The notes under the pieces were generated by a model. It saw only the letters and a list, made by a program, of their open reading frames with translations, ran no database searches and was not told the DNA's origin. Shown here piece after piece: positions 5,456 to 29,227 of a stretch of 32,495 bases of DNA. Position numbers and translations under genes: made by a program. This stretch comes from Candidatus Limnocylindrales bacterium (lineage in GTDB: Bacteria; Chloroflexota; Limnocylindria; Limnocylindrales; CSP1-4), in NCBI GenBank assembly GCA_038320305.1, contig JBBQEC010000002.1, positions 1 to 32,495 of the forward strand. The letters are read 5' to 3'. Numbering within the stretch: position 1 is the stretch's first letter; every line of letters starts with the position of its first letter.

Positions 5456-6939
5456 GCGTCGGCCCGCTCGCGCTCAGCGTGACGAACGATCTCGACCACT
5501 TCGGCCACCGTCTCGCTGAGCGAGTTGCCTTCCGTCTTGACCAGCGTCGCCCCCACCGGAACCTGCAACGGGGCCGTTGCGCGGCTGCTGTCGATACCGT
5601 CGCGCTGGCGCAGCTCTTCCTCGATCAGCGCGACGGCGCGCGCGTCCTTTGCCAGCCCGCGCTCCTCAGCCCGTCGCCGCGCGCGCTCCGCGACGGAAAC
5701 GTCGAGATACAGCTTCACGTCAGCGTCCGGTAGCACGACCGTGCCGATGTCGCGCCCGGCCATGATGATCCGGCCCTTGGCCGCCAGGGCTCGCTGAAGT
5801 TGCAGCAGATCCGCCCGAACCGGGGCGTGCTGCGAGACGCGACTCACCTCCCGATCAACCTGTGCCGTATGGAGGCGCTCGGTCACGTCCTCGCCGCTCA
5901 CGAACATGCGCACGTACCGATCTTCTTCATCCGGTCGCAGGTCCATCTCACGGACCAGCGGCACGAGACTGTGCGCATCGTCGAGATCGGTTCCGCGCTC
6001 CATCGCCAGCCATGTCAGACCGCGGTACAGAACGCCCGTGTCACAGAACTGGTAGCCCAGACTCGCGGCGGCACGCATGCCGACCGTGCTCTTGCCGCTG
6101 CCGCCGGGGCCGTCGATACTCACGATCAGGCCACGCGACGATTTCGTTCGCGGCGGCGGCGGTGCGGCTCCCGAGAGGGCATCGAGTTGCTGCCGTTCCG
6201 CGGCCGACAGCTCACGGACTTCACCCAGGTGCATGCCACTCAGGCGCACGGTGCCGAAGCGCAGCCTGATCAGTCGGCGAACGGGCACTCCGACGGCAAC
6301 GAACATGCGCCGGATCTGACGCTTCATCCCCTGGCGCAACGTGACCATGTACCAGGTCAGATCGGTTACGGGCCGACCCACCGCCTCGCCCAGAAGCCGA
6401 ACCTCTGCCGAGGTAGCCGGGCGCAGGTTGGCCAGACGGGCCGTCCCCTCCTCCATCTGCACGCCGCCTTCAAGCGTCTCGCGCTGTTGCCGGCCGAGCG
6501 GCTGCTCGATGCCCACCGCGTACTCGCGCTCAACGCCATGACTCGGATGGAGCATCCGCTGCGCCCAGTCGCCGTCGTTGGTCAGCAGCAGCAGACCTTC
6601 CGAATCGCGATCGAGCCTGCCCACTGGGAACAGGCGCTCGGCGCGCGTCCGGAGCTCACGGGGCACGAGGTCGATCACGGTGCTCGAGGCGTGCCTGTCG
6701 CTGACCGTGCTCGTGACACCGGCAGGTTTCGCCAGCGCGAGGTAGAGCCGCTTCTGCGCGCCGGCGATCGCGTGGCCATCGACTGCAAGCACGTCCCGGG
6801 CCGGATCGACGAGCTGGCCAACCCCGGCGATTGACCCATTCACCGTCACGCGACCTTGCGCGACGATTTGCTCCGATTTGCGACGCGACGCGACACCGGC
6901 GTCGGCCAGCGCCTTGTGGATCCTGACCCCGTCACTCAA
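5452..6939 (-). CDS. rluB/cmk: Fusion protein: N-terminal S4 plus RsuA/RluB-family pseudouridine synthase, Pro-rich linker, C-terminal cytidylate kinase
   Basis: S4 domain: RIHKALADAGVASRRKSEQIVAQGRVTVNG. Catalytic block: GRLDRDSEGLLLLTNDG...REY. Linker: SGAAPPPPRTKSSRG. Cmk P-loop and core: IVSIDGPGGSGKSTVG...DTGVLYRGLT...GRDIGTVVLPDADVKLYLD...RRR...RD. It is a single uninterrupted 495-codon frame. Confidence 0.9.
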   Translation of the reverse strand: MSDGVRIHKALADAGVASRRKSEQIVAQGRVTVNGSIAGVGQLVDPARDVLAVDGHAIAGAQKRLYLALAKPAGVTSTVSDRHASSTVIDLVPRELRTRAERLFPVGRLDRDSEGLLLLTNDGDWAQRMLHPSHGVEREYAVGIEQPLGRQQRETLEGGVQMEEGTARLANLRPATSAEVRLLGEAVGRPVTDLTWYMVTLRQGMKRQIRRMFVAVGVPVRRLIRLRFGTVRLSGMHLGEVRELSAAERQQLDALSGAAPPPPRTKSSRGLIVSIDGPGGSGKSTVGMRAAASLGYQFCDTGVLYRGLTWLAMERGTDLDDAHSLVPLVREMDLRPDEEDRYVRMFVSGEDVTERLHTAQVDREVSRVSQHAPVRADLLQLQRALAAKGRIIMAGRDIGTVVLPDADVKLYLDVSVAERARRRAEERGLAKDARAVALIEEELRQRDGIDSSRATAPLQVPVGATLVKTEGNSLSETVAEVVEIVRHAERERADA

Positions 6940-8828: not shown

Positions 8829-9479
8829 CTAGAACCCGAGCAGGAACGTCGTGATCGTATTGCCGATCTGGCCGATGAACGTGGGTGCAAAGAAGATCAG
8901 CAGGATCAGGACCACGAAGCCGTACTGCTCGAACGGTTTGAGGGAGTAGGCAGTCCGGGCGTCCACGAGGCCGAGAAGTGCGCGCCAGCCGTCGAGCGGC
9001 GGGATGGGCAGCAGGTTGAAGATCAGCAGCAGGACGTCGATCTCGACGAACAGGACTGCGACGTTGAAGACAAACCTGGCGGCGTCGTTCGACAGCACCG
9101 TGCCGAGCATGCTCGAGTCGCCCACAATGATGCGCAGAGGAATGGCCACGATCGCGGCCATGATGAGGTTCGAGATCGGGCCGGCCACCGCGACGAGCGC
9201 TTCTCCCTTGCGGCCGAAACGCAGGTTGTAGGGGTTGACCGGAGTCGGCTTTGCCCAGCCGATGCCGAAGCCTGCGAGCAGCACGCTGATGGCCAGGATC
9301 GTGCCACCGACGGGATCGAAATGAACGAGCGGATTGAGCGACAGGCGGCCCTGCCGGCGCGCGGTCGAGTCGCCTAGGCGAAACGCAACCCAGGCATGGC
9401 TGAACTCATGGACCGGAAACGCAACGAGCAGGAATATGGCAACAACCGTGCCGCCCTGGATAAGTGTTGCAGTCGTCAC
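8829..9479 (-). CDS. Site-2-protease-class (peptidase M50-like) integral membrane zinc metalloprotease
   Basis: HExxH as VHEFSHAW inside a TM segment, several further TM helices, and a second ligand region LLPIPPLDG. GTG start in a GTGA overlap. Confidence 0.85.
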   Translation of the reverse strand: MTTATLIQGGTVVAIFLLVAFPVHEFSHAWVAFRLGDSTARRQGRLSLNPLVHFDPVGGTILAISVLLAGFGIGWAKPTPVNPYNLRFGRKGEALVAVAGPISNLIMAAIVAIPLRIIVGDSSMLGTVLSNDAARFVFNVAVLFVEIDVLLLIFNLLPIPPLDGWRALLGLVDARTAYSLKPFEQYGFVVLILLIFFAPTFIGQIGNTITTFLLGF

Positions 9480-10369
9480 AGACGGCCAAGTAGCTCCTGC
9501 TTTTTGGCCTCGTATTCCTCTGGCGTGATTGCGCCGCTGTCGCGCAGATCGGCCAGTCGCGCAAGCGTCTCTGTGACGTCAAGCGATGAGTTCGGTACCT
9601 TGACGGCCGCGGCGGGCGCGGCGGGCGCGTCGTGCATGGCGGGCATCGACGCGGCCGCGGGCGGTGGCGCGTCGGGCGGTGGCATGGGCACGGGCATTGG
9701 CGCCATTGCAGGCGGTGGCGGCGGCGCTGCCTGAGCCATGCCGGGAGGAGGCGCTGCCGGGGCCGTTTGCGGCAGTGGTTGCGCAACCGGCTGAGGAACG
9801 GGCGTCATTGCCGGCTGGCTATCAGCGCGGAGAGGCGGCGTTGGCGGCATCGCCCGGCTGTTGTAGCCGCTTTCAAGAGTGTGCTTCTCGTTGAGCATCG
9901 TCTTCTTGAACTCGATCGGGTCGTGGAGCATGTGATACGTGTCGACCGCCTCTTCGGCTGCGGTCAGGATCGTCAGGTTGCCATAGTTGAGCATGCGACC
10001 CAGCAGGGGCTGCTCGAGAATGGCGTCGTTGATCTTCTCGAGCTCGCTGTCGGCGCTGTGCTTGTTCAGGATGCCGCCCACCTTCAGCAGGCGCCGGTTG
10101 GTCACGATGTACTCCTGCGTGCGCCACTGCCAGAACCGATAAAGGAGCACGATCAGGCCCAGGATCAGCAAGCCAAAGGCCACGTAGCTCGGGATGTCAC
10201 GCGTCAGGCCGGGCCCAATCTTGAAGACGACGACGGCGACGATGAGCACGATCGCCACGATCCACAGAAACAATCCACCACGCGAGCGCGACAGAAGCGA
10301 CAGCCAGTGCTGATGTCCGCGCAGGACGACCTGCTCGCCACTGGTTAACAAGGTGTCGGCGTAACTCAC
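9476..10369 (-). CDS. Membrane protein: two TM helices plus bacterial PH (bPH_2/YdbT-like) domain, ~110-aa Pro/Ala-rich linker, C-terminal SHOCT motif
   Basis: PH-like domain: EYIVTNRRLLKVGGILNKHSADSELEKINDAILEQPLLGRMLNYGNLTI. Linker: PPTPPLRADSQPAMTPVPQPVAQPLPQTAPAAPPPGMAQAAPPPPP.... SHOCT-like end: LARLADLRDSGAITPEEYEAKKQELLGRL. GGAGG lies 6 nt upstream of the GTG start. Confidence 0.8.
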   Translation of the reverse strand: MSYADTLLTSGEQVVLRGHQHWLSLLSRSRGGLFLWIVAIVLIVAVVVFKIGPGLTRDIPSYVAFGLLILGLIVLLYRFWQWRTQEYIVTNRRLLKVGGILNKHSADSELEKINDAILEQPLLGRMLNYGNLTILTAAEEAVDTYHMLHDPIEFKKTMLNEKHTLESGYNSRAMPPTPPLRADSQPAMTPVPQPVAQPLPQTAPAAPPPGMAQAAPPPPPAMAPMPVPMPPPDAPPPAAASMPAMHDAPAAPAAAVKVPNSSLDVTETLARLADLRDSGAITPEEYEAKKQELLGRL

Positions 10370-10385
10370 CGTGGAGCCTCCATGT

Positions 10386-11315
10386 TCAAGCGCGTGGGTG
10401 TGCCCGCGCGTAGACCTGCTTGATTCGCTCCCCCGTCAGATGTGTGTACAGCTGCGTGGTCGTGATGCTCGCGTGTCCTAGCAATTCCTGCACGACGCGC
10501 AGGTCCGCGCCACCCTCGAGCAGGTGCGTGGCGAAGCTGTGGCGAAGCGTATGCGGAGTCACGTGTCCCGTCACGCCGCCCACGAGCGCAGCATGTCGAA
10601 TTGTGCGCCACGCGGCCATTCTGCTGAGGCGAGCGCCGCGCAGGCTGACGAAGATCGGCCCGCCCCGACGCAATGTCGATTTGGGCGCATTGGCGAGAAG
10701 CTGCGGTCGAACGTCAGACAGGTACCGAGCCACCGCGGCGACCGCGATGTCGCCCACGGGAAGCCTGCGCTCGCGGTCGCCCTTGCCGATCACGCGCACT
10801 GTCGCCTCGTCCAGTGACAGGTCCTCCACGTCCAGGTTGAGCGCCTCGCTCACACGCAGGCCGCAGGCATACAGCAGCTCGAGCAGGGCACGATCGCGGA
10901 TACCTGCGGCCGACTCGCTGCTCGGAGCCTCGAGCAACGCCTCGACATCTGCAACGTCGAGCGTGTCGGGCAGAACCTGGGTCGCGCGGGGCAGATCAAG
11001 GAGGCTCGCGACATCGCGCTCGATGACGCCCTCGGCAAAGCAGAAACGATAGAACGCACGTACCGCCGCCGCCTTGCGCCGATGAGTCGCTGGGCGGAGC
11101 ACGCGTGGCGGCTTCGACAGCGAGGCGAGGTAGCCCGTTGCGGCTTGTGCGTCATTTCGCCATGTTTGCCCGGCCTGGGCGGCATGGCGCGCAAATGCAT
11201 GGAGATCGGTCGAATAAGCCGACATCGTCGCCCGCGACAGGCCGCGCTCGACGCGCAGGAAATCGAGGTACGAATCGATCGCGTCGAGCAGCGTGGGATC
11301 CCCGGCCTCGTTCAC
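10386..11315 (-). CDS. xerD: Tyrosine site-specific recombinase, XerD type (chromosome dimer resolution)
   Basis: N-terminal core-binding domain: LDFLRVERGLSRATMSAYSTDL. Catalytic domain: ACGLRVSEALNL...HTLRHSFATHLLEGGADLRVVQELLGHASITTTQLYTH. The XerD versus XerC call is by context (recN upstream, scpAB downstream). Confidence 0.82.
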   Translation of the reverse strand: MNEAGDPTLLDAIDSYLDFLRVERGLSRATMSAYSTDLHAFARHAAQAGQTWRNDAQAATGYLASLSKPPRVLRPATHRRKAAAVRAFYRFCFAEGVIERDVASLLDLPRATQVLPDTLDVADVEALLEAPSSESAAGIRDRALLELLYACGLRVSEALNLDVEDLSLDEATVRVIGKGDRERRLPVGDIAVAAVARYLSDVRPQLLANAPKSTLRRGGPIFVSLRGARLSRMAAWRTIRHAALVGGVTGHVTPHTLRHSFATHLLEGGADLRVVQELLGHASITTTQLYTHLTGERIKQVYARAHPRA

Positions 11316-12955
11316 CGTGTGGCCTCAACCAGGCGCCGCGCGTCGGCCGCCGCCGTGAGCAGAGCGTCGGCGGCGGCTAGGGACGCCTCGGCACCGGCGG
11401 CACCGCCCAACATCTGAGCCAACTCGCCTCGGCGCGCCTCTGTCGACAGTTGCTCGATATCTGTCGTGGTCCGACCGTCACGCTCGGTCTTCTCGATGCG
11501 CAGGTGCTGATCGGCATAGGCGGCAATCTGCGGAAGATGCGTGACGCATACGACCTGATGGTCGCGCGCCAGGCGCCAGAGCATCCGGCCGACGGGATCC
11601 GCAGAACGTCCGCCGATGCCCGCGTCGACCTCGTCGAAGATCAGAGTTGGTGTTTCATCTGCGCGGGCCAGGACGGTCTTGAGTGCGAGGGCGACGCGTG
11701 ACATCTCCCCGCCAGAGGCGATCCGGGCCAGTGGCCGGGCCGGCTCGCCCGGGTTGGGCATGAACACGAACTCGACCTGATCAGCGCCACTCTCGTCTAA
11801 GGGCGCCGCTTTGATGGCCACGGCGAACGCGCCAGCCGGGAAGCCGAGCTCGACGAGCAGGCCTGTCGCCTGATCGGCCAGAACCGCTGCGGCCGCTGTG
11901 CGCACTATCGAGAGCTGCGCGGCGGCGGCGCGCGCGGTGGCTGCGAGTAGATCCTGCTCGGCCGCGCGGCGCGCGCGCTCGGCGTCCAGGCCACGCAGGC
12001 ACTCAGCTTCGGCGCGCGCTCGCCCGCCGTACTCGATCAGTGCCTCGTCTTCGCCATATTTGCGCATGAGGCCGTACAGCACACCCAGTCGCGCCTCTAG
12101 CGCGGCGCTGTCATTGGCCGCGTCCGCAACTGAGTCCTGCCGGCGGCGCAGCTCCAACGCGATGTCGTCCAGCTCAGCCTCGACACCGGCAATCCTGTCG
12201 GCCAGACCGGCTGTCTCGTGATCCAGGCGGGCAAGCTCAATCGCAGACCGCATCGCCTGGGCGACGCCGTCGCGCGCCGATCGACCTTCCGAGGCGAGCA
12301 GGTCGTGCGTCTCCGCGAGCAGGGCAACGATGCGTTGGGCGTTGCCGGCGAGTGCGAGTCGGGCGCGTAGCTCCTCTACCTCGCCCTCGCGCGGCGCGGC
12401 AGCCTCGATCTCGTCGGCAGCGTGCTCGGCGAGCTCGAGCCGGCGCTCGAGCTCGGCAGGATCCAGGGCCAGCTCGCGCAAGGCCGCTTCATTGGCGCGC
12501 ATCCTGGTAACGACTTCAGCCACGGCCGCACGAAGCGCAGCGTGGCCACCAAATGCGTCGAGGACGTCGCGCTGCCATGCCGACGAGAGCAGCCGTTGCT
12601 GCTCGTGCTGGCCGTGGATCTCGATCAGCGGCCCAACAACCTGGGCCAGTCGCGCGGCGGTCACCGTCTCGTCGTCGATGCGCGCGACGCTGCGCCCTTC
12701 ACTGGACACCTCGCGCACGCAGATGAGAGGATCCGGCGCCGCGTCGATGTCAAACAGCGCTTCGACGCGCGCGCCCGCGGCGCCGTGACGCACGAGGCTC
12801 GTATCGGATCGCTCGCCCATGACCAGCCCGAGCGCGTCGATGAGCAACGATTTGCCCGCTCCGGTCTCGCCCGTGATGATCGTCAGGCCCGGTTCGAAAG
12901 CGACACGGACGCGCTCGATGAGCGCCAAATCGCGGACGGCCAGCTCGCGCAGCAT
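11312..12955 (-). CDS. recN: DNA repair protein RecN (SMC-like ATPase)
   Basis: Start set at ATG 12955 (MLRELAVRDLALIERVRVAFEPGLTIITGETGAGKS). Long Ala/Arg/Glu coiled-coil middle. ABC signature ASGGEMSRVALALK and Walker B LIFDEVDAGIGG. The 636-aa longest ORF overlaps nadK and is rejected. Confidence 0.93.
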   Translation of the reverse strand: MLRELAVRDLALIERVRVAFEPGLTIITGETGAGKSLLIDALGLVMGERSDTSLVRHGAAGARVEALFDIDAAPDPLICVREVSSEGRSVARIDDETVTAARLAQVVGPLIEIHGQHEQQRLLSSAWQRDVLDAFGGHAALRAAVAEVVTRMRANEAALRELALDPAELERRLELAEHAADEIEAAAPREGEVEELRARLALAGNAQRIVALLAETHDLLASEGRSARDGVAQAMRSAIELARLDHETAGLADRIAGVEAELDDIALELRRRQDSVADAANDSAALEARLGVLYGLMRKYGEDEALIEYGGRARAEAECLRGLDAERARRAAEQDLLAATARAAAAQLSIVRTAAAAVLADQATGLLVELGFPAGAFAVAIKAAPLDESGADQVEFVFMPNPGEPARPLARIASGGEMSRVALALKTVLARADETPTLIFDEVDAGIGGRSADPVGRMLWRLARDHQVVCVTHLPQIAAYADQHLRIEKTERDGRTTTDIEQLSTEARRGELAQMLGGAAGAEASLAAADALLTAAADARRLVEATR

Positions 12956-19589: not shown

Positions 19590-20147
19590 TCAGACGCGGG
19601 TCTGGTAACCGCCAGTACGGGTATCGACGCGGATCGTGTCGCCCACGTCGACGAAGATCGGAACCTGGACGACCAGTCCGCTCTCGAGTGTGGCCGGCTT
19701 GTGGGCTCCCGACTGGGTGTCGCCGGCAAATCCGGGCTCGGTATCGGTCACCTTCAAATCGACCGTCACCGGTAGCTCCACGTCGATCGTTTCGCCTTCA
19801 TACGACGTCCGGTCGAGGACCATCCCGTCAGTCAGATACATGGCCGATTCGCCGAGGGTCTCGCGCGTCATCGAAAACTGCTCGTAGGACTCAGTGTCCA
19901 TGAAGTGATAGTCGTTGCCATCGGCATAGAGGAACTGGACCTGACGGTTGTCGAGGTACGCGCGAGGCCATTTTTCACCGGCCTGGAACGTCTTCTCCAC
20001 TGTCTGGCCGCGCTTGATGTTGCGCAGCTTGATGCGCACCTGGGCAGAGCCGCGGCCCATCTTGATGTGGTGGTACTCCAGCACCTGCCAGATATCGCCA
20101 TCGATCTCGATGACGATTCCGCGGCGCAAATCGCTGGTCGAAATCAC
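19590..20147 (-). CDS. efp: Translation elongation factor P, with Arg at the tip of the modification loop
   Basis: N-terminus ISTSDLRRGIVIEIDGDIWQVLEYHHIKMGRGSAQVRIKLRN. Later motifs: ...FMDTESYEQ...TEPGFAGDT...KPATLESG. GTG start with AGGA 7 nt upstream. Confidence 0.95.
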   Translation of the reverse strand: MISTSDLRRGIVIEIDGDIWQVLEYHHIKMGRGSAQVRIKLRNIKRGQTVEKTFQAGEKWPRAYLDNRQVQFLYADGNDYHFMDTESYEQFSMTRETLGESAMYLTDGMVLDRTSYEGETIDVELPVTVDLKVTDTEPGFAGDTQSGAHKPATLESGLVVQVPIFVDVGDTIRVDTRTGGYQTRV

Positions 20148-20156: not shown

Positions 20157-21362
20157 CTAGCCGACGACCGTGACCTCCCGAGGAAAGAGCGTGATGCGGT
20201 CAAGCCGGCGCGCGTCGGCGTCGAAGATGACGAGGTCCTCGATACGGACGCCCATGACATCGTCGAGATAGATGCCGGGCTCGACCGAGAACACGGTTGG
20301 CGAGGGCAGCGGCGTCTCCGCCACGGACATGCCCAGCGAGGGCAGCTCATGTGTGGCCAGGCCGATGCCGTGACCCAGGCCGTGTCCGAAGTGCTCGCCA
20401 TGGCCGGCCGCGTCGATGACGTCGCGGGCGACGATGTGAATCGACTTGCCCGTGGGGCGCTCGCCCTCAGCGATGGCGTGGGCCAGCGCGTCAATTGCCG
20501 CTTGCTGAGCGCGCGCCACGATTTCGTAGATCTCGAGATCGTGCTTGCTCGGCTCGCCCACGAACAGCGTTCTGGTCATGTCCGAGCGATAGCCGCAAAC
20601 CTGGGCTCCGAAGTCGAACAGCAGAACCTCACCGGCACGTACCTCGCGTGACCCCGGTGAGCCGTGAGGCAGTGCCGCGTTCGGGCCGCTGAGGACCGTG
20701 ACATCGAAGGCGAGCGCTTCCGCGCCGTGCGTGCGCATCTCCCACTCGAGCTGGAGCGCGAGATCGTGCTCGGAAACGCCGGGTCTGATGCTCGGCAACA
20801 GGCGCTCCAGCGCCTTGTCTGCAACTGCCGACGATGCGGCGACGCGTTCGAGCTCGGCCAGCTCTTTGACCTGGCGCTGCCCTTCGATCCAGCCGTCGGC
20901 CGCGACGAGCTCAACGTCCGGTGTCGCGGCTGCCAGCTTCTGCCACATCGCGTAGCTGACGAAGCCCGCCTCGACCGCAAGGCGCTTGGGCGAGCCAATG
21001 CTCGCGATCAGTTCGGGCCAGCGGCTGTAAAGATCGTTGTAGACGCGTTCCAGGCGCGCTTCAGGGCATTGATCGCGAACCTGCACGGTGTAACGCGAGT
21101 CGGCCATGACGACCAGATCGTTCTCGGATACCAGGAAATGACCCGAATAGCCGGAAACCTTTTCCTCGCCCTCAGCCAGCTCGAGCCCGGTCAAGTAGCG
21201 GACGTTTTCGCGCCGAACGCCGAAGTAGGCGCCGACCTCCTCCTCTTTCAGGCGCGCGCGAAACGCCGCGAGGCGCAGCGGTCGAGCGAATCGGTCAGCC
21301 TCGCGCCAGCGCTCGTAGTCGGCTGGGGTTGGTTCCGCTCGAGCAGCGCTGGTGTCGATCAA
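20157..21362 (-). CDS. M24-family Xaa-Pro aminopeptidase/dipeptidase
   Basis: Metal-ligand blocks: FDFGAQVCGYRSDMTRT, HGLGHGIGLATHE, VFSVEPGIY, GVRIEDLV. This is the usual position upstream of efp. TTGA overlap with the mltG stop. Confidence 0.88.
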   Translation of the reverse strand: MIDTSAARAEPTPADYERWREADRFARPLRLAAFRARLKEEEVGAYFGVRRENVRYLTGLELAEGEEKVSGYSGHFLVSENDLVVMADSRYTVQVRDQCPEARLERVYNDLYSRWPELIASIGSPKRLAVEAGFVSYAMWQKLAAATPDVELVAADGWIEGQRQVKELAELERVAASSAVADKALERLLPSIRPGVSEHDLALQLEWEMRTHGAEALAFDVTVLSGPNAALPHGSPGSREVRAGEVLLFDFGAQVCGYRSDMTRTLFVGEPSKHDLEIYEIVARAQQAAIDALAHAIAEGERPTGKSIHIVARDVIDAAGHGEHFGHGLGHGIGLATHELPSLGMSVAETPLPSPTVFSVEPGIYLDDVMGVRIEDLVIFDADARRLDRITLFPREVTVVG

Positions 21363-22915
21363 GGCGTCGCCTCCGGTTGCTGGCTGAAGCCGGGCAGGCC
21401 GAACGTCGGCTCCGAAGTCGGCTCCGGCGAGCCGCCGCCCAGGTAGAGCTGAATGTTGCGCAAATGCTCTTCGTATGTCCGAGCAAAGACTAGATCACCC
21501 GATCCATCGTTCTTGCCCAGGAAATAGAGGTAGCCGTCCTGGGTGTCGGGATCGAGGGCGGCATGGAGCGAGACCACGCCAGGCGAAGCGATCGGCCCAG
21601 GCGGCAGTCCGCGCGAGTGCCAGACCTGGTAGCCCTCCAGGTCCTGGGTGACCTCGAAGTCGGCCGCCGACCCGATGCCGTTGTAGGTCCAGAAGACGTA
21701 GTCGGGCCACTGTGTGATGTGCAGGTCGCGCAGGTTCATCGTGTCGTTGGCATAGATGATGACCGGGTCCGAGTTGAGGGTGCGGACGCCGCCCAGGCCA
21801 TCGACCCGGTTCTGGTAGACGCCGGCGACGAGCGGCTTGTCGGAGTCGTGCAGCGCCTCGCGCTCGACGATGCTGGCCAGGATCACGGTCTCGTAGAAGT
21901 CCTTGCCCTCCGACTGAGCCTGCTGCATGAGGCCATACGCCGGGCTGTCCTGCCATCCCTGGAGCAGCTCCTCGAGGATGTCCTGCGCATCTGCATCGGT
22001 CGGCACGTTGTAGACGCCCGAGCCGAGAAAGCCCTCGACGCTGCGACCAGCCGGGATGACGCTCAGCCACGGGAACTTCTGCTTGAGCGAGTCGGGCGGC
22101 GATGTGGCCAGCTCGTAGAACTGCTCTGGATCGAAGTTTCCGAGCGGCACCGTCTGCAGGTACGCGACGATCTGCTCCATCCGAAGACCCTCGCGCAGCG
22201 CCACCTGCACGGTCGAGCCAGTGGTGGTTGGCTGGTTCTGAAGGGTGGCCGCGACCTCGCGCGGCGACATCGTTCGGTTGAGCATGTGCGTTCCGGCCTG
22301 GAGCTTGTTCAGCCCGCCATCGTTGACCAGCACGTAGGTGAACGCCAGGCGGTCGGACAGCAGGCCTCGATTCAGAAGATCCTGGGTTATCTCCGCGCTC
22401 GACTCGCCCGGAGCGATCTCGAATTCGACCATGGTCGGATCTGTGCCGGCGGGCTTGTTGGGCCGGTCGTCCATGACCGACGACACGGCCTCCGACACGA
22501 GACCGATGCGCATCAAATCAGGGTTTGCCTCCGCCAGCGATCGGAAGAAGCCACCTGCGAGAGGCGGCACGACTACGGCCGCCACCAGGAGCACGCTGAT
22601 GAGCGAGGCGATGATGATCGCCAACCGATTCCGGCTGCGCTTCTTGCCGCGCGGCATGAACGCCGGTGTGGGCCCCTCACCGGTGGCGCGCGCCTTTGAG
22701 TGGGCCTGGGCCTCTGTCAGCGTGCGATCGCGCGACGATGAGTTCCTCTCACGCTCCTTGAGATGCTGATCGATCGACGTCCTGTCGTGGTTGCGCAGAT
22801 GCGCCTCCACGGCCGATCGATCGCGCTTTTTGACATGCTCGGAGATGTCATTCGGATCGCGCCGCGGCACCGGCCGCTGGCTGCCGCCCGACCGATTTTC
22901 TGGCCGCTGGCTCAC
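21359..22915 (-). CDS. mltG: Endolytic murein transglycosylase MltG/YceG, unusually long (518 aa), with a ~95-aa cytoplasmic N-terminal extension
   Basis: TM: LAIIIASLISVLLVAAVVV. YceG core: ILASIVEREA, VAGVYQNRV, LNSDPVIIYA, GLPPGPIASPG, YLYFLGKNDGSGDLVFARTYEEH. GTGA overlap with the ruvX stop. Confidence 0.88.
   Translation of the reverse strand: MSQRPENRSGGSQRPVPRRDPNDISEHVKKRDRSAVEAHLRNHDRTSIDQHLKERERNSSSRDRTLTEAQAHSKARATGEGPTPAFMPRGKKRSRNRLAIIIASLISVLLVAAVVVPPLAGGFFRSLAEANPDLMRIGLVSEAVSSVMDDRPNKPAGTDPTMVEFEIAPGESSAEITQDLLNRGLLSDRLAFTYVLVNDGGLNKLQAGTHMLNRTMSPREVAATLQNQPTTTGSTVQVALREGLRMEQIVAYLQTVPLGNFDPEQFYELATSPPDSLKQKFPWLSVIPAGRSVEGFLGSGVYNVPTDADAQDILEELLQGWQDSPAYGLMQQAQSEGKDFYETVILASIVEREALHDSDKPLVAGVYQNRVDGLGGVRTLNSDPVIIYANDTMNLRDLHITQWPDYVFWTYNGIGSAADFEVTQDLEGYQVWHSRGLPPGPIASPGVVSLHAALDPDTQDGYLYFLGKNDGSGDLVFARTYEEHLRNIQLYLGGGSPEPTSEPTFGLPGFSQQPEATP
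22733..22840 (-). repeat. Three tandem 36-bp (12-aa) imperfect repeats in the mltG 5' extension
   Basis: Protein-level alignment: EHVKKRDRSAVE / AHLRNHDRTSID / QHLKERERNSSS, giving consensus xH[VL][KR]x[RH][DE]R[STN]xxx. They are followed by a partial RDRTLTE. Confidence 0.55.
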
Positions 22916-23391
22916 GGCTCCCCCTCCACGACGCCAGAGTCGGCGATGGCAAGACGCGCGTCGATCTCAGCCTGCACGATCGCCGCGGCCGCCATGCGGT
23001 CGAGACGTGCACGGTGCGCGCGTCGGGCCTTCGCGGATGGCGGCCCGCCGGACTTGCCACGGGCCGGTGCACCGATTTGATCGATGGCATGTGCCGTGGT
23101 CAGGCGTTCGTCGCGCCACGCCAGCGGAAGGTCGATCTTCGCCGTGATGGCGAGCGCCCACTCACGAGTCTGGGTTGCCTGGGAGCCCTCGGTTCCATCC
23201 ATGTTCAGGGGCAGGCCCACGACCAGCTCATCGACGCGCTGCTCACGAACGATGTTTGAGATCGTGCGCGCATCGCGCTCGATGTCAGAGCGGCTGATCG
23301 TCGTCAGGGGCATGACCGAGCCATTGGCCGTGTCCCCCACTGCCAGTCCGATCCGCCTCGTGCCGAGATCGACGCCGAGCAGCCTGCTCAT
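22912..23391 (-). CDS. ruvX: Holliday-junction-resolvase-like putative pre-16S rRNA nuclease RuvX/YqgF
   Basis: Start set at ATG 23391 (MSRLLGVDLGTRRIGLAVGD), in an ATGA overlap with the upstream stop. Motifs: VVGLPLNMDGTEG, DERLTT. The 200-aa longest ORF is rejected. Confidence 0.9.
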   Translation of the reverse strand: MSRLLGVDLGTRRIGLAVGDTANGSVMPLTTISRSDIERDARTISNIVREQRVDELVVGLPLNMDGTEGSQATQTREWALAITAKIDLPLAWRDERLTTAHAIDQIGAPARGKSGGPPSAKARRAHRARLDRMAAAAIVQAEIDARLAIADSGVVEGEP

Positions 23392-25148
23392 GATGGGCCA
23401 GGCACCGGTGACGGCGGGATCGTGCGGGCTGGTGCTGGAGCCGGAGAGGGCGCGATGACCGTGACGTTGATGCGCGCGGGCTGGTCGGGCAGGTGATCGA
23501 CGAAGTCGGGCCACAGCGTGATGTCTGCAATGCCGAAGCTGGCCAGCGCGGCCCTGGCATCAACGAGCGCCTTGCCCCGAATCGCGATCATCAGCGCCTG
23601 TGGATCAGGGTCGGTGTACCCAAGCCCGCTGGCGTGGACGCTGTAGACGACCGTGTCGCCAACGACGGTGCCCCCGTCATGTTCCGCGTCGACGTCGTTA
23701 CCGACGAGCTTTTGGCCGGTGGCGAGCGAATCGCTCAAACGGGCGGCCGCGACCTGGTCAATCTGCGCTTCGTTTACGGCCGTCACATTGGCCGTGGCGT
23801 CAAGGGCGAGGTCGAAGCCGGGCTCAACGACACCGACGACGCTCGACGACTCCTGATCGGGCTGACCCGCACTCATCTGGACCGTCTGTGGGAACGCCAC
23901 GAGGCCGCGCGGCACACTCTGCGGGTCTGCCAGCGCAGTCTGGAGCGCGGCATCGAACTGGCCGCCCAATGTCGCCACGGCCGAGTCGTAGTCCTGCTGG
24001 GTGACTATCTGGTCTTCGGTGTGCTTGCCGCCCGTGGTCGGGTCGGGATTCGTGACGGTGATCACCTGCTCAGCGACGGCCGCAGGCACAACAGTGATCG
24101 TGCCTGCCCCTAAGTTTCCAGCCACGCCTCCCTTGACGGCACGCACATTGACGTCAGCCTGCGTGGGTCCCGTCTCGAACGATGCCTTGGGCACGATTGT
24201 GTCATCGAGCGTTACGAAATCGACCCCGTCGGTGGTCGAGACAACGGTGTTCCTTGGTATCGAAACTGGATTGACGGTGTTCTCGCCCTTGAATCGGACG
24301 CTGCCGGAGGCGCGCACGTCGTGAGCGTCTATGCCGGTGGCCGTGAATGATCCTGAGACGTGTATCGGCACGCTGATCTGTTGGGCCGGGATGACGCCCG
24401 CGACCGGATCTACGACTGCAACATTGGGATCGGCCGTGACGACGAATTGCGGGACGTCGATCTGGGTCGCCGTCGGTCGAAGCGTCACCGACGCTGTGGG
24501 CAGAAACACGTAGGCGCCAGAGCCGACGCCAGCGATCAGGAGTGCCACAAGACCAAGGACGAGCAGCGGGGCGACCGGGATACGCCGCTTTCTGCGAATA
24601 CGAGACGACGCTGCCGAATTGTCCGAAACCGCCGGCATCACGGCCGTGTCATACGGGGCAGGGTCAACGCGCTTCACTGCGCCAGGCATCCGCGAAGCAG
24701 GTCCGGCCGCTGCTGACCGCGTGCCACGGACATCGGTCGAGCCACGGACATCGGTCGAGCCGCGGGGCGGCAAGATCGAGGTCTGGCCGCCGCGGACGTT
24801 CGCGGCCGGATCGAGATGTGCCGGCGGCGAGGTCGGGCTGAGGCGCTCGGCGAGCTTTCGGTCCTGCTCCTGAAACGTCGTCAGTGCCTGCCCGGCCGAC
24901 GGGATCGAGTCATACGCAGGCACGCCGGCCGAGATCGCGAGGGCGCGGACCTGCGGCTCGTCGCTGACCGCGACGAGGTTCATCTGCCGCTCGGTGGCCT
25001 CGCGCGCCAGCAGCTTGAAATTGATGCGCGAGGTCGCGATCTTCGATCCGGGCGGCACCACGACGATCACATCTGGTTCGCGCACGGCACGAATACGCTT
25101 GATCGCGGTCGTGATCTCGTCGTCGACCTCGAGATAGCAGACTGCCAC
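23388..25148 (-). CDS. Uncharacterised 586-aa single-pass membrane protein. It has a ~85-aa cytosolic N-domain, a ~110-aa disordered linker, one TM, a ~370-aa Thr/Val/Gly-rich extracytoplasmic domain and a Pro-rich tail.
   Basis: GTG start 1 nt after the FtsA-like stop. N-domain: CYLEVDDEITTAIKRIRAVREPDVIVVVPPGSKIATSRINFKLLAREATERQMNLVAVSDEPQVRALAISAGVPAY. Stop-transfer RIRRKRR followed by TM IPVAPLLVLGLVALLIAGVGSGAYVF. The ectodomain contains VRAVKGGVAGNLGAGTIT, which is reminiscent of baseplate-J-like A.G..GN motifs (from memory only). Confidence 0.8.
   Translation of the reverse strand: MAVCYLEVDDEITTAIKRIRAVREPDVIVVVPPGSKIATSRINFKLLAREATERQMNLVAVSDEPQVRALAISAGVPAYDSIPSAGQALTTFQEQDRKLAERLSPTSPPAHLDPAANVRGGQTSILPPRGSTDVRGSTDVRGTRSAAAGPASRMPGAVKRVDPAPYDTAVMPAVSDNSAASSRIRRKRRIPVAPLLVLGLVALLIAGVGSGAYVFLPTASVTLRPTATQIDVPQFVVTADPNVAVVDPVAGVIPAQQISVPIHVSGSFTATGIDAHDVRASGSVRFKGENTVNPVSIPRNTVVSTTDGVDFVTLDDTIVPKASFETGPTQADVNVRAVKGGVAGNLGAGTITVVPAAVAEQVITVTNPDPTTGGKHTEDQIVTQQDYDSAVATLGGQFDAALQTALADPQSVPRGLVAFPQTVQMSAGQPDQESSSVVGVVEPGFDLALDATANVTAVNEAQIDQVAAARLSDSLATGQKLVGNDVDAEHDGGTVVGDTVVYSVHASGLGYTDPDPQALMIAIRGKALVDARAALASFGIADITLWPDFVDHLPDQPARINVTVIAPSPAPAPARTIPPSPVPGPS
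24724..24759 (-). repeat. Perfect 18-bp tandem duplication (2 copies) in the linker of the 586-aa protein
   Basis: ccacggacatcggtcgag occurs at 24724-24741 and again at 24742-24759. This encodes GSTDVR-GSTDVR. Confidence 0.9.
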
Positions 25149-25149
25149 G

Positions 25150-26448
25150 TCAGACCTTCATCTGGCGCAGCACGCGGCGCAGCGCGGCATCCAGCGGCGC
25201 TTCGGTCGCGCTCATCTCGAGCGCCTGATAAGCGAGTGCCATTGGCGTGATGTCCTGCTCGTCGACGAGCAACCCGGTCGCATCGGAGACGTGCGTGACC
25301 TGCTTGACCTTGATCGCCTCGACCTGCGGCGGGCGGGCGAAGGAGAGGTGCCGGGCAAGCTCAGGGTCGCGCAGGGCTGCACCGATCTGCGGCAACCGTG
25401 CGCCGCCGCCGCACACGTAGATCCGGCCGGGCAACATTCCCGAGCGCGCGAACTCCTCGAGCACGAGCTCGACGCCGGCCTGCCACACGGCGACGTCCTC
25501 GCCGATGATCTCGCCGATCTCGGCGCCATGATCGACCGCGACGCCCTTCGCGTAGTCGACCTTGAGATCCTCGGCACGGGCGAAGGGCAGGTCCATCCGA
25601 TCGGCCAGAGACTTGGTGAACGCACGACCGCCAAGGGCGAACATGCGCGTCCCTTCGATACCGCCCTGGCGCACGAGGGCGACATCCGTGGTCCCGCCTC
25701 CAACATCGATGAACAGGGCGCCGTGCTGCTGGACGTGCTCGTCATCCAGGCAGCGCGCGACCGCGTATGGCTCGGCCACGATCGCGACCAGGTCAAGATC
25801 GAGCATGCTCGCGACCGTTTGCAGGGCTCCCAGATGGATCAGCGGCGCGAAGGCGTTGAAGACATTGATTCGTACGTGCCGGCCATGGAAGCCGACCGGG
25901 TTGGTGACGGCATAGCCGTCGATCGTGGCGCCAGTGACAGCGGCATGAACCAACCTGATGTCGACGTTGGGCAGCCCGGTCTCCCAGGTCACGGTTCGCT
26001 CTGCTTCGCGCAGTGCGTCCTTTTGGACGCTCTCGATCAGCGAGTCGAGCTCGCGTGCGGTCAGCTGCTGGTCGGGATGCTTGCGTTCCTGGCTGACGCT
26101 CGTCGTGAAGCCCTTCACGAGCTCACCGGCGATGCCGATTATGACCTGGGTCGAGCGGAAGCCGGCCATCTCCTCTGCTTCCTGCAGTGCCACCTGGCAG
26201 TTGTCAACGACCGCCGCGATGTCGGCAACGGTGCCCGATTGCATGTGCGCGAGACCCTGCCGCTTGCGGCCCACGCCACGGACAGTGGCCTGGCCGTCGT
26301 CGTCAATGTCGAAGACGAGCGCCTTGGCAAACTCGGTGCCAACGTCCAGCGCGGTGCACGCAGCCAGCCTTCCGCCGTCCGCGCGTTGGAGGAAGCGGCG
26401 CCAGAAAGCCACCCTAGGCGGCGCCGATTCCCGTGGCTTGTGATCCAT
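25150..26448 (-). CDS. FtsA-like actin-superfamily ATPase with a basic amphipathic-looking C-terminus
   Basis: Phosphate-1: ALDVGTEFAKALVFDI. FtsA-like block: GTVADIAAVVDNCQVALQEAEEMAG...VIIGIAGELV. Further motifs: IVAEPYAVARCL, phosphate-2 ALFIDVGGGTTDVALV, GGRAFTKSLA...ARAEDLKVDY, adenosine IYVCGGGARLPQIG. C-terminus: PLDAALRRVLRQMKV. Start is ambiguous between ATG 26448 (35-nt overlap with alaS) and GTG 26412 (1 nt after the alaS TAG). The longest ORF to 26631 is rejected. Confidence 0.8.
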   Translation of the reverse strand: MDHKPRESAPPRVAFWRRFLQRADGGRLAACTALDVGTEFAKALVFDIDDDGQATVRGVGRKRQGLAHMQSGTVADIAAVVDNCQVALQEAEEMAGFRSTQVIIGIAGELVKGFTTSVSQERKHPDQQLTARELDSLIESVQKDALREAERTVTWETGLPNVDIRLVHAAVTGATIDGYAVTNPVGFHGRHVRINVFNAFAPLIHLGALQTVASMLDLDLVAIVAEPYAVARCLDDEHVQQHGALFIDVGGGTTDVALVRQGGIEGTRMFALGGRAFTKSLADRMDLPFARAEDLKVDYAKGVAVDHGAEIGEIIGEDVAVWQAGVELVLEEFARSGMLPGRIYVCGGGARLPQIGAALRDPELARHLSFARPPQVEAIKVKQVTHVSDATGLLVDEQDITPMALAYQALEMSATEAPLDAALRRVLRQMKV

Positions 26449-29227
26449 CACCGTCGCGCAACGTCTGCTCGAGGCTTTCGCGGATTGCCGTGAGCGCACT
26501 CGGCAGCCGATCGCGACGCGTACCGCGTGCCTGGGCCATCTCCGGTTTGCCGCCGCCGCGGCCTTCGAAAACGAGCGCGCCGTGGCTGACAAGCGTGCCC
26601 GCGGATACGCCGCGCGACACCAGGTCGTCACTGACCGTCACGAACAACTGCGGCTCGTCCGACTCCAAGCCCAGGGCAATGACTCCGTCACCGAGCTCGG
26701 CGCGCAGCGCGCGGGCAAACGACTGCAGATCTTTCATCGAGTCGAATTCGGACGAATAGGAGACGAACTTCGCGCCGCCGACCGGCAGCGCGCTGCGTGC
26801 GAGATCTGTTGGTTGGCGGCCGTTGCCCCCCGAGCGCAGCCGGCGCTCGAGGTCCTTGTTGCGTTCGTGCATCTCGCGCACGCGATCAGGCAGGGCCTCC
26901 GGGCTCCGCGCGCCGGCTTCGTTGGTGGCGCGATCCAAAAGAGCGACTCGCGCATCGAGGTAGGCATCCGCGGCGTCACCGGTGAGCGCCTCGATGCGCC
27001 GCATGCCACTGCCCACCGATCGTTCGCCCGTGATCACGAAGCCGCCGATCTGGCCGGAGGCTACGCAATGCGTGCCGCCACACAGCTCGCGACTGAAGCT
27101 GTCGACGAATACGACGCGCACCTTCTCGCCGTATTTCTCATTGAAGAACGCATCGGCGCCCTCCCTGATCGCATCGGCCATGCTCATTAACCGGGGCGTG
27201 ACCGGGCGGTTGTCGCGCACCACGCGGCGCACCTCGGCCTCGATCTGGCGCTTCTCGTCGTCCGTCAGTGGCCGGTCGCCGTGGTAGTCGAAACGGAGGT
27301 AGTCGGGCGTGACAAGCGAGCCGGCCTGGCGCGCCTGGTCCCCGACCGTGTTGCGCAGCGCGCGGTGCAAAAGGTGCGTGCCGGTGTGATTGCGCATCGT
27401 CCGCGCGCGTCGCTCGGTGTCGACCTCCGCGCTCAACGTGTCGCCGACGGCCACTCGGCCATGCAGCCGTCCGCGCATGACGATCAGCCCCGGCACCGGC
27501 CGCTGAGTGTCTTCGACCGTGAACAGGACATTGCCCTCGGCACCATTGAGCACGCCTCGGTCGCCGACCTGGCCGCCACCTTCGGCATAGAACGGCGTCT
27601 GATCCAGGACGATCTCTGCCGCGGCGTCGGCGGGCGCGCGCAGCTCGGCTTCAGGCATCGCCTCGAGCCGCTCATATTCGATTCCGTCGCGCAGGATCGC
27701 CTTCACAACACCCGGCGCCGATGTCGTCTCGTAACCCAGGAACCTGGTCTCGCCCGAGGTGGACGCGACCTGTGCATACAGCGCTTGCATCTCTGCTTGC
27801 CCGGCCATATCAACCCTGCGACCGCCGCGCGACCGTTCGCGCTGCTCGCCAAGGGCGTGATCGAAGCCCTCGCGGTCCACGCGCACTCCGTATTCGGCGG
27901 CAAGCTCCACGGTCAGATCGATCGGGAAGCCATATGTGTCGTGCAGTCGAAACGCGACGTCGCCGGGCAGCACGGGCGCGTCGCCGCCGAGCTCGTCAGC
28001 CGATCGACCAACGACGCGCTCGGCGGATGTCAGCGGGATGAGCGCCTCTTCGAACAGGACCACTCCAGCGTCCAGCGTTCGCTGGAACTGGCGCTCCTCG
28101 GCCGCGACAACTCCGTAGATCTCCTTGCGCCGCTCCTCGATGAACGGGTACGCAACGCCCATCGTGTCGATGACGACGCCCGAAAGATCTGCGAGAAACG
28201 GTTCCATGCGCCCCAGCAACCGGCCGTGGCGCACGGCGCGTCGAAGGATGCGACGCATGACGTAGCCGCGCCCTTCGTTCGAGGGCCGGATGCCATCGGC
28301 GGCGAGGAACGTCAGCGCGCGGACGTGATCGGCGATGACCTGGTAGCTGAAGCGCTCGGCCTGGAACGTCTCTGGGTCGTGGCCGAGGGCGTTGCGCATC
28401 CACGCGTGAATCGGCGCGAACAAATCCGTGTCGTAGTTGGTTGGCACATCCTGCAGGACGCTGGCCAGCCGCTCGAAGCCCATGCCGGTATCGACGCTCT
28501 TGAACGGCAGCGGCGTTCGTCCGCCAGGCTGCTGGTCGAACTCCATGAAGACGAGGTTCCAGATCTCGAGCCAACGCGGGCAGGTTTCCGAGTGGTCGGG
28601 CACGCAGTGCGGCCCTTCGCTCAGATGGGCGCCGCGGTCGTAGTGGAGCTCGCTGCACGGCCCGCACGGACCCGTATCCGCCATGCGCCAGAAGTTGTGA
28701 TCGTCGCCCTTGTCAGCATCGCCCCAGCGCGCCATGCGCTCCTCGGGCATGCCGATCTCGTCGCGCCAGATGTTCCATGCCTCGTCGTCATAGGTGTAGG
28801 TCGTTGCACCGATGCGCTCGAACGGGATCTTGTAGACCTGCGTCAACAGCTCCATCGCCCAGTGAATGGCTTCGCGCTTGAAGTAGTCGCCGAAGCTCCA
28901 GTTGCCGAGCATCTCGAAGAACGTGTGGTGCCGGGGAGTGCGCCCGACCTCCTCGAAGTCGTTGTGTTTTCCCGCGACGCGCAGGCAGCGCTGGACATCG
29001 ACCGCACGCTTGTAGGAACGTGTCTCGGCACCGGTCAAAACGTCCTTGAACTGGACCATGCCCGAGTTCGTGAAGAGCAAGGTCTGGTCGCCGGCGGGCA
29101 CGAGTGACGCGCTGGGCACGATCGTATGGCCGCGCTCGGCGAAGAAGTCAAGGAAGTGCTGGCGGATCTCCGCAGCAGGCATGCTCGGAATGTCCGCGCC
29201 CTCACCGCGGAGCGTGACGTCTGGCAT
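26414..29227 (-). CDS. alaS: Alanine--tRNA ligase
   Basis: Motifs: EIRQHFLDFFAERGHTIVPSASLVP, LLFTNSGMVQFKD, HHTFFEMLGNWSFGDYFK, editing-domain MRNHTGTHLLHRAL and CGGTHC, plus a C-terminal DHHA1-like end. The ATG at 29182 (MPAAEIRQ...) is an equally plausible start. Confidence 0.96.
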   Translation of the reverse strand: MPDVTLRGEGADIPSMPAAEIRQHFLDFFAERGHTIVPSASLVPAGDQTLLFTNSGMVQFKDVLTGAETRSYKRAVDVQRCLRVAGKHNDFEEVGRTPRHHTFFEMLGNWSFGDYFKREAIHWAMELLTQVYKIPFERIGATTYTYDDEAWNIWRDEIGMPEERMARWGDADKGDDHNFWRMADTGPCGPCSELHYDRGAHLSEGPHCVPDHSETCPRWLEIWNLVFMEFDQQPGGRTPLPFKSVDTGMGFERLASVLQDVPTNYDTDLFAPIHAWMRNALGHDPETFQAERFSYQVIADHVRALTFLAADGIRPSNEGRGYVMRRILRRAVRHGRLLGRMEPFLADLSGVVIDTMGVAYPFIEERRKEIYGVVAAEERQFQRTLDAGVVLFEEALIPLTSAERVVGRSADELGGDAPVLPGDVAFRLHDTYGFPIDLTVELAAEYGVRVDREGFDHALGEQRERSRGGRRVDMAGQAEMQALYAQVASTSGETRFLGYETTSAPGVVKAILRDGIEYERLEAMPEAELRAPADAAAEIVLDQTPFYAEGGGQVGDRGVLNGAEGNVLFTVEDTQRPVPGLIVMRGRLHGRVAVGDTLSAEVDTERRARTMRNHTGTHLLHRALRNTVGDQARQAGSLVTPDYLRFDYHGDRPLTDDEKRQIEAEVRRVVRDNRPVTPRLMSMADAIREGADAFFNEKYGEKVRVVFVDSFSRELCGGTHCVASGQIGGFVITGERSVGSGMRRIEALTGDAADAYLDARVALLDRATNEAGARSPEALPDRVREMHERNKDLERRLRSGGNGRQPTDLARSALPVGGAKFVSYSSEFDSMKDLQSFARALRAELGDGVIALGLESDEPQLFVTVSDDLVSRGVSAGTLVSHGALVFEGRGGGKPEMAQARGTRRDRLPSALTAIRESLEQTLRDGDGSQATGIGAA

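Follow-up and report, generated by a model that had tools for sequence, protein, structure and literature searches.

Several described bacterial systems pair an actin-like ATPase with a single-pass membrane protein. FtsA of Escherichia coli works with the cytoplasmic tail of the bitopic FtsN. PilM binds the cytoplasmic N-terminus of PilN, which presents no more than a short peptide there and has a small periplasmic ferredoxin-like domain. In the MreB–RodZ system, the folded cytoplasmic N-domain of RodZ docks the actin-like protein and is followed by a basic juxtamembrane stretch, a transmembrane (TM) helix and a beta-rich outer domain, with a link to peptidoglycan synthesis. Proteins of another kind, T4 gp6, P2 J, Mu gp47 and TssF, are known as building blocks of the wedges and rings of baseplates. 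Here, we analyse a pair of adjacent genes from Candidatus Limnocylindrales bacterium (phylum Chloroflexota; GenBank assembly GCA_038320305.1, contig JBBQEC010000002.1), which encode an FtsA/PilM-like ATPase of 420 residues and a bitopic partner of 586 residues with a baseplate-like outer domain, between alaS and ruvX. The window is the whole contig of 32,495 nt; all genes of the alaS–efp region lie on its minus strand, to which the coordinates of this region refer.

The pair appears to comprise a third paralogue of the FtsA/PilM type and a membrane adaptor of its own, and evidence that the paralogues coexist comes from Southlakia epibionticum. Both genes are real, because they have thousands of homologues, the ATPase keeps 68–88% identity over 80 species, and the Pfam scores exceed the gathering thresholds. 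In databases the ATPase is named FtsA, PilM or rod-shape/MreB-like, and its partner goes under the name of a phage baseplate protein. In literature searches we met no account of such an ATPase/baseplate-J pair. A first-pass annotation of the same DNA, made from the letters alone, knew of no characterised function for the pairing.

The ATPase gene (25150..26412) lies within an open reading frame (ORF) of 25150..26631 that offers an alternative upstream ATG at 26448. The first-pass annotation correctly placed two genes between alaS and ruvX, although its choice of ATG 26448 for the ATPase has to be corrected: GTG 26412 is most likely the real start codon, because the homologues have 420 residues and begin with MAFWRRFLQR, and the ATG would give a 35-nt overlap with alaS. 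The motifs ALDVGTEF, FIDVGGGTTDVALV and YVCGGGARLP that the annotation had pointed out, together with a C-terminal LDAALRRVLRQMKV, are all present in the translation. Their invariance was judged in an alignment of 34 family members with identities of 28–47%. In the phosphate-1 motif ALDVGTEF (26329..26352), D23 and G25 are invariant; in the phosphate-2 motif FIDVGGGTTD (25684..25713), D236 and G238 are invariant and T242 nearly so; and in the adenosine motif CGGGARLP (25390..25413), G335 is invariant and G336 nearly so. The three motifs and the two-lobed RNase-H-like fold of an AlphaFold2 (AF2) model (mean predicted local distance difference test, pLDDT, 77; predicted template modelling score 0.71) place the protein in the ASKHA/actin-fold superfamily. 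In a Foldseek search, the model matches best FtsA of Vibrio, E. coli, Thermotoga and Staphylococcus aureus (E-values 4e-28 to 1e-21, TM-scores ~0.55–0.64), with FtsA 7q6i (4e-28) ahead of PilM 5eoy (7e-21), and EutJ, MreB, Hsp70 and ParM are also among the matches. A profile of 29 ATPase homologues, compared with PDB sequences, likewise puts FtsA chains on top (1.6e-15). Residues 89–190 of the model form a beta-beta-alpha-beta-beta insert, and both the TIGR01174 (ftsA) alignment and the FtsA Foldseek matches span the 1C region.

Both ends of the ATPase carry conserved amphipathic peptides. The N-terminal basic/aromatic MAFWRRFLQR (26383..26412) has a hydrophobic moment of 0.69; in 29 Limnocylindria sequences W4, R5 and R6 are invariant and F3 and L8 nearly so, and similar peptides occur in distant members. 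At the C-terminus, the predicted amphipathic helix LDAALRRVLRQMKV (25153..25194) has a hydrophobic moment of 0.65–0.79, among the highest of the protein, which supports the earlier description of this end as basic and amphipathic-looking and makes it a putative membrane anchor. Most distant members share its motif L-x-[RK]-[VI]-h-x-x-M-x-[VI] at this end of the protein.

The partner gene (23388..25148, GTG start at 25148) encodes four parts in its AF2 model (pLDDT 82.6), which bears out the compact N-domain, disordered linker, single TM helix and beta-rich ectodomain that had been read from the translation. The predicted cytoplasmic N-domain (residues 1–103; 24840..25148) is a small alpha/beta domain with pLDDT above 90 and the order beta-alpha-beta-alpha-beta-alpha-beta followed by a long helix; it belongs to no Pfam family, and its Foldseek matches are weak ones of the CheY/TadZ type. 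The linker (residues 104–190; 24579..24839), with pLDDT below 50 over residues 107–191, ends in the basic cluster RRKRR, whose position on the N-terminal side of the TM helix predicts an N-in, C-out topology. The TM segment (approximately residues 191–216; 24501..24578) has a Kyte–Doolittle peak of 2.6 at residues 190–208, is modelled as a helix at 193–211, and contains a conserved GAYVFLPTA. The ectodomain (residues 217–565; 23454..24500; beta-rich over 218–565 in the model) has a multidomain fold like that of baseplate J/gp47/gp6 proteins. The partner matches Pfam Baseplate_J (PF04865) with 41.3 bits (1.4e-10), where the gathering score is 21.1, and its profile finds the PDB entry 9g8s, 'Baseplate J family protein' (3e-4). 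In Foldseek, the ectodomain aligns over 340–360 columns with the phage baseplate proteins of phi812 (9euf, 3.5e-8), A-1(L) (8kea), phiCD508 and Mu gp47 (9ki1), at E-values of 4e-8 to 1e-5, and many baseplate J-like phage proteins are matched in BFVD (2e-9). No Pfam or NCBIfam model for POTRA or FtsQ matches the partner at E-values up to 0.1. Partner homologues at 44–66% identity keep the same architecture.

The linker cannot be aligned between species, and its length ranges from ~25 to ~420 residues across lineages. The linkers of 16 of 66 Limnocylindria partners (including those of the window, L001 and L003; L numbers are our locus handles) contain one or two copies of a short motif, T-x-[VI]-[LMI]-P, which is also present once in a Ktedonobacteraceae partner (L083); 20 copies were counted, where shuffled linkers predict 0.74. 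As a general docking element it was rejected, being present in only these 16 of the 66 Limnocylindria partners.

By its scores, the ATPase stands apart from both families after which it is named. Its best NCBIfam model is TIGR01174, ahead of the far lower PilM, EutJ and MreB models; all 34 diverse members match it, with a best E-value of 3.2e-36, and the window protein scores 107.6 bits against an equivalog cut-off of 175.85. In Pfam, the window protein matches PF14450 (FtsA C-terminal domain) alone (47.4 bits, 3e-12, above gathering). PF02491, the SHS2 1C subdomain, gives no match for it and a weak one in one of the 34 members. The PilM models also stay below their cut-offs, with 34.7 bits against 133 for TIGR01175 and 19.6 against 27 for PF11104, the latter matching weakly in 29 of the 34 members. 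None of the 92 loci examined has ftsZ or ftsQ beside the ATPase gene, in support of the claim that this is not a standard divisome locus. Neither in the window nor in the conserved contexts is the pair flanked by pilB, pilC, pilN, pilO or a pilin gene, and other tail genes (gpI/gp48/TssG, spike, tube or sheath) are absent from the window and from every related locus. Because of the sub-threshold score, the lack of an ftsZ neighbour and the presence of the block in Southlakia alongside a separate ftsA and pilM, the pair is best regarded as separate from the divisome FtsA.

Among the matches listed in protein homologue searches (120 per search), the closest homologues of both proteins belong to the Chloroflexota class Limnocylindria, as do all of the best 80 of at least 570 hits in a scan of species-representative genomes with the ATPase alignment; the wider taxonomic spread comes from an exhaustive search of representatives and from contig look-ups. 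The order alaS–ATPase–partner–ruvX–mltG is kept in every Limnocylindria locus long enough to judge (~70 of 80), usually followed by pepP and efp, with a median gap of 10 nt between ATPase and partner and with the partner stop codon overlapping the ruvX start in about half of the loci. Median identities to the window proteins over the 80 Limnocylindria species are 72% for EF-P, 71% for the ATPase (68–88%), 66% for AlaRS, 52% for the partner N-domain, 51% for RuvX, 40% for the catalytic part of MltG and 36% for the partner ectodomain; within the partner, the N-domain is thus the best conserved part, and the ectodomain diverges faster.

The exhaustive search of 1.84 billion cluster representatives returned 350 ATPase representatives at E-values below 1e-30, full-length down to 28% identity, from sources named Ktedonobacteraceae, Dormibacteria, Berkelbacteria, Portnoybacteria, Parcubacteria, other Patescibacteria and Saccharibacteria. 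The adjacency of the two genes, which had been observed in the window, holds in all judgeable Limnocylindria loci, in Ktedonobacteraceae, Dormibacteria and Berkelbacteria, in one more Patescibacteria genome, on a sediment contig and on a contig whose neighbouring genes are of the Firmicutes type. In Ktedonobacteraceae (L083) the order is alaS, ATPase, a 933-residue baseplate-J protein, ruvX, mltG and bacA; in Berkelbacteria (L085) alaS, ATPase, partner, ruvX and mltG, then murA, mreB, mreC and PBP2; in a sediment metagenome (L089, GCA_000763215) alaS, ATPase, partner, ruvX and mltG; and in the other Patescibacteria genome (L092) alaS, ATPase, partner and ruvX, with mltG elsewhere. On the contig with Firmicutes-type neighbours (L087, GCA_007116145.1, 7669–12370), the pair lies between IreB and ruvX–DUF1292–mltG, and in a Saccharibacteria-like contig (L091) the partner is three genes from the ATPase, directly before a RuvX–YceG fusion gene. 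Hidden Markov models (HMMs) of the N-domain and the ectodomain were built from Limnocylindria sequences only; the former finds the downstream partner in six distant lineages (E-values 2e-5 to 9e-15), and the latter, where it detects the domain, gives 6e-14 to 4e-23. The ectodomain HMM does not detect the L092 partner, and the L088 contig stops short of the ectodomain. The first-pass annotation was right to see the two genes within a conserved alaS–ruvX–mltG block and wrong to see them as inserted into it locally: the arrangement alaS–ATPase–partner–ruvX–mltG is ancient and common to Chloroflexota and Patescibacteria, the candidate phyla radiation.

Individual loci show further peculiarities. 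The L083 partner (9417–12218) owes its 933 residues to a linker grown to ~420 residues, with N-domain, TM helix and ectodomain kept. An aldo/keto reductase gene is inserted between partner and ruvX in L087. RuvX and YceG/MltG are called as one 531-residue fusion directly after the partner gene in L091 (15487–17082), which from its sequence would put the RNase-H-like domain of RuvX on the cytoplasmic side of a membrane-anchored MltG. A 19.7-kb Limnocylindria contig (P0133) encodes a 710-residue protein with Baseplate_J and RuvX domains, a partner–RuvX fusion that may be genuine or may reflect a stop codon lost in the 4-nt ATGA overlap. In L086, ~1.2 kb on the 3' side of the ATPase gene (9300–10500) carry internal direct repeats and hold no ORF of 100 residues or more on that strand, and a PilB/T2SSE ATPase is encoded 6 kb downstream.

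The Saccharibacterium Southlakia epibionticum has the gene order mnmA (SEML1_0658), alaS (0657), 'PilM' (0656), baseplate J (0655), ruvX (0654) and mltG (0653) (PMC10633639, Tables S1 and S2). SEML1_0656, named 'pilus assembly protein PilM', has 427 residues, PF14450 as its only Pfam domain and an ECOD assignment to FtsA 3wt0; SEML1_0655, a 'baseplate J/gp47 family protein', has an N-domain that structure-based annotation assigns to a SpoIIaa-like ECOD class, and a C-terminal gp6 domain III (PMC10633639). Elsewhere in the genome are a canonical ftsA (SEML1_0174, PF02491 and PF14450) beside ftsZ (0175), and a pilM (SEML1_0104, PF11104) followed by a PilN-like gene (0105) (PMC10633639). The families of SEML1_0656 and SEML1_0655 are flagged as core and as enriched in Patescibacteria (PMC10633639), and the words PilM, FtsA, FtsZ and baseplate are absent from the main text of that paper. 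A Saccharibacteria relative (P0439/L091) shares 36% identity with the window ATPase, and 72% with a Saccharibacteria protein that NCBI names PilM.

Transposon-insertion sequencing (Tn-seq) of S. epibionticum provides calls and normalised reads at T0, T1 and T2 (PMC10633639). The ATPase gene is called NE/NE/GD (2427, 660 and 221 reads), a growth defect that comes late, the partner gene NE/ES/ES (373, 34 and 24), ruvX NE/ES/ES (112, 0.75 and 0.93) and mltG NE/NE/NE (3853, 2592 and 1790), and ftsA and ftsZ are GD/ES/ES with reads near 0 after T0; genes essential only after T0 are termed 'class II essential' (PMC10633639). These data demonstrate a fitness cost of disrupting the counterpart genes in the Saccharibacterium.

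Taken together, we favour a dedicated and ancient two-protein module, distinct from the divisome FtsA and from the PilM of type IV pili, that couples an ATPase to the envelope through an adaptor, and put its probability at roughly 0.6. The cytoplasmic FtsA/PilM-fold ATPase, which may polymerise, would be anchored to the membrane through its two conserved amphipathic ends, and the partner N-domain, displayed on a flexible linker, is its likely docking site. A conserved interface between the two is plausible because the ATPase and the N-domain evolve slowest, and the variable length of the linker resembles that of a flexible tether. The ectodomain is probably a domesticated homologue of phage baseplate wedge proteins that self-associates or binds wall material outside the membrane; either is plausible because the fold is that of proteins assembling into wedges and rings. 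An actin-like ATPase on the inner face would thus be coupled through a single-pass partner to cell-wall events, as in FtsA–FtsN, PilM–PilN and MreB–RodZ. Because the pair sits with ruvX and mltG in almost all carrier lineages, we infer a role in organising the cell envelope or peptidoglycan of the wall-bearing, outer-membrane-less Chloroflexota and Patescibacteria, and mreBCD–PBP2 or LysM/CHAP genes near the pair in some Patescibacteria also suggest a wall role. A more far-reaching version, which we offer as a tentative possibility, is that the module is a third actin-family envelope system beside the FtsA divisome and the MreB elongasome, ancestral to the Chloroflexota–Patescibacteria lineage, whose ATPase drives or positions an extracellular assembly made of the domesticated baseplate-wedge protein, which Patescibacteria with their minimal genomes would need for growth.

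Several points weigh against the favoured two-protein module. Its linkage to mltG may be inherited gene order rather than function: mltG lies elsewhere in L092, and we know of no wall function for alaS or ruvX. In Southlakia, mltG is dispensable and the partner is called essential, so the partner would not be merely an accessory of MltG. The partner's Tn-seq depletion may in part be a polar effect on the essential ruvX downstream, and SEML1_0655 and 0656 were equated with the window genes by gene order, length, annotation and the related contig L091. The L086 ATPase belongs to the family and has no partner nearby, and reading its downstream region with an alternative genetic code brought out no hidden partner gene; the L087 ATPase is without the conserved C-terminal helix. 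The interaction of ATPase and partner is itself a prediction.

Could the pair instead be a true divisome FtsA that moved out of the dcw (division and cell wall) cluster, with the membrane protein as an FtsQ/DivIB- or FtsN-like partner? FtsA is the closest characterised family by both sequence and structure, the C-terminal helix resembles the membrane-targeting sequence of FtsA, and IMG and some submitters name the proteins 'cell division protein FtsA'. We nevertheless consider such a relocation very unlikely, given the TIGR01174 score below cut-off with no SHS2_FTSA match, the 92 loci lacking an ftsZ or ftsQ neighbour and the partner lacking a POTRA domain; moreover, Southlakia carries the block in addition to a canonical ftsA–ftsZ called essential, while the module ATPase tolerates insertions, and ftsA is reported adjacent to ftsZ in Dehalococcoidia (PMC10608941). 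Of the two outcomes that the first-pass annotation had named beforehand as speaking against its own reading, neither a relocated dcw fragment nor a loss of adjacency among relatives is what the evidence indicates. It is unlikely that the ATPase aligns a type IV pilus or a competence machine in the manner of PilM, with the bitopic partner in place of PilN/PilO: Southlakia has a separate pilM with its PilN-like gene, the TM7x pilus loci carry PilM1/N1/O1 and PilM2/N2/O2, the partner is far larger than PilN and of another fold, and neither the TIGR01175 score nor the gene neighbourhood points to a pilus. What speaks for a PilM is the NCBI name 'pilus assembly protein PilM' for Patescibacteria members, the strong Foldseek matches to PilM structures with the weak PF11104 matches, the orphan L086 member near a PilB/T2SSE ATPase, and the prominence of type IV pili in Patescibacteria (PMC11623550).

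The gene neighbourhood itself invites another explanation, in which RuvX and AlaRS are the functional partners in membrane-located RNA or translation work and the likeness to wall-associated actins is incidental. In nearly all lineages the partner adjoins ruvX, frequently with codon overlap; it is fused to RuvX in P0133 (as RuvX is to YceG in L091) and shares the NE/ES/ES profile of ruvX in Southlakia. However, a polar effect would produce an equal profile, sequencing error or stop loss in the 4-nt overlaps may have created the fusions, and an extracytoplasmic baseplate-like domain of ~350 residues has no obvious role in RNA processing, and we regard this explanation as improbable. That the partner is left over from a prophage, a tailocin or a contractile injection system, with no meaning in its neighbourhood to the ATPase, could be argued from the Baseplate_J match and the Foldseek matches to phage wedge proteins, and is effectively refuted by the conservation data: the N-domain and TM helix are conserved across two phylum-level lineages, and the family is 'core' in Patescibacteria and depleted in Tn-seq. 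The partner is also part of a housekeeping operon of host-like composition, with no other tail, sheath, tube or spike gene.

The genes from alaS to efp are tightly packed and, by ORF calls and junction reading, leave no space for independent promoters. The block begins with alaS (26414..29227), a 937-residue ORF for alanine–tRNA ligase, in the position at which relatives have tRNA-synt_2c. Its stop codon TAG (26416..26414) is followed by 1 nt and the GTG of the ATPase gene. The next junction reads ...AAGGTC TGA c GTG GCA..., again with 1 nt between the TGA and the partner GTG at 25148, and the one after it ...CCATC ATGA GC..., in which the partner TGA overlaps the ruvX ATG at 23391; both had been described in this way by the earlier annotation and were read directly. 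The junctions at 26410–26416 and 25146–25152 are thus built alike, as a stop codon, 1 nt and GTG. Overlaps of 4 nt are found at partner/ruvX, ruvX/mltG and mltG/pepP. This design along approximately eight genes, from alaS to efp/DUF1905, suggests translational coupling in an operon. Downstream of the partner lie ruvX/yqgF (22912..23391; Pfam RuvX, 1e-31), mltG/yceG for an endolytic transglycosylase with one TM helix and a long cytoplasmic N-terminal extension (21359..22915; Pfam YceG, 3e-55), pepP for an M24 aminopeptidase (20157–21362) and efp (19590–20147). The extension of MltG comprises ~95 hydrophilic residues before the TM helix and contains a loosely repeated segment (HLRNHDRTSIDQHLKERERNSSSRDRT).

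The remaining genes of the window are housekeeping genes (mnmA, dxs, recN, xerD, ispH, der and others); no dcw gene, including ftsZ, ftsQ and mur genes, is present in the 32.5 kb. The composition is uniform at ~66% G+C. A scan of the window with Rfam detected no RNA element, including no T-box before alaS, and promoter and terminator scans stayed at or below chance level. We note three other proteins encoded on the minus strand: a 495-residue ORF (5452–6939) with S4, PseudoU_synth_2 and cytidylate kinase domains, an apparent rluB–cmk fusion; a 205-residue protein (3592–4209) with a Septum_form domain (PF13845, 36.2 bits); and a 135-residue protein (4356–4763) with a Flp/Fap pilin match below the gathering score.

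Few bacterial lineages are as large and as poorly understood as Chloroflexota and Patescibacteria, and little is known about the biology of their envelopes. Across the 80 Limnocylindria species the ATPase is under a constraint equal to that of EF-P, the pair is retained in Patescibacteria genomes of ~0.7 Mb, and the one Tn-seq data set available for Patescibacteria shows depletion of the membrane partner. Recognising the ATPase as a paralogue in its own right, with a dedicated adaptor, would correct the FtsA, PilM, MreB-like and phage-baseplate labels, add a shared character linking the two lineages and clearly exemplify how a phage-baseplate fold can serve core cell biology. The function is directly testable, with S. 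epibionticum genetically tractable and Ktedonobacteria, which carry the pair, cultivable.

Compared with the known systems, the ATPase is most like FtsA (TIGR01174; PDB 7Q6I, 4A2A and 3WQT), its best match in sequence and structure, in its nucleotide-binding motifs, its C-terminal amphipathic helix and, as modelled, an actin/ASKHA fold with an inserted SHS2-type 1C subdomain and no 1B; the ATPase and its bitopic partner also have a layout similar to that of FtsA and FtsN. Unlike FtsA, the ATPase falls below the equivalog threshold, has no PF02491 match, is never beside ftsZ or ftsQ, carries an additional conserved peptide at its N-terminus and a motif of conserved sequence at its C-terminus, has a baseplate-J protein as its pair mate, and coexists with a canonical ftsA–ftsZ in the Saccharibacterium. 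With PilM–PilN (PDB 2YCH and 5EOU) the pair shares the FtsA-like ATPase fold and the single-pass membrane protein encoded directly downstream, whereas it has no pilus genes nearby and a TIGR01175 score far under the cut-off, and in place of the short peptide and small domain of PilN it has a folded domain of ~100 residues, a long linker and a baseplate-like ectodomain of ~350 residues. For the layout of the partner, MreB–RodZ is the closest analogy, although the ATPase is of the FtsA/PilM type rather than an MreB, and the N-domain of RodZ is a helix-turn-helix whereas that of the partner is a small alpha/beta domain (SpoIIAA/receiver-like). Ktedonobacteria are reported to be without mreBCD (PMC10608941), yet carry the pair, and in Berkelbacteria (L085) the pair lies beside mreBCD. 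The ectodomain resembles the J/gp47/gp6 wedge proteins of phages and TssF of the type VI secretion system (PF04865) in its multidomain fold over ~350 columns and in the Pfam barrel with its G-x-x-G-N-V region, and a gp6 domain III is found in the Southlakia counterpart. The identity to phage baseplate proteins is only 12–15%, and, unlike these, the partner is anchored in the membrane, fused to a cytoplasmic domain and encoded in a housekeeping operon with no gpI/gp48/TssG-type partner. In sum, the pair repeats the theme of an actin-like protein with a bitopic adaptor rather than showing a new principle.

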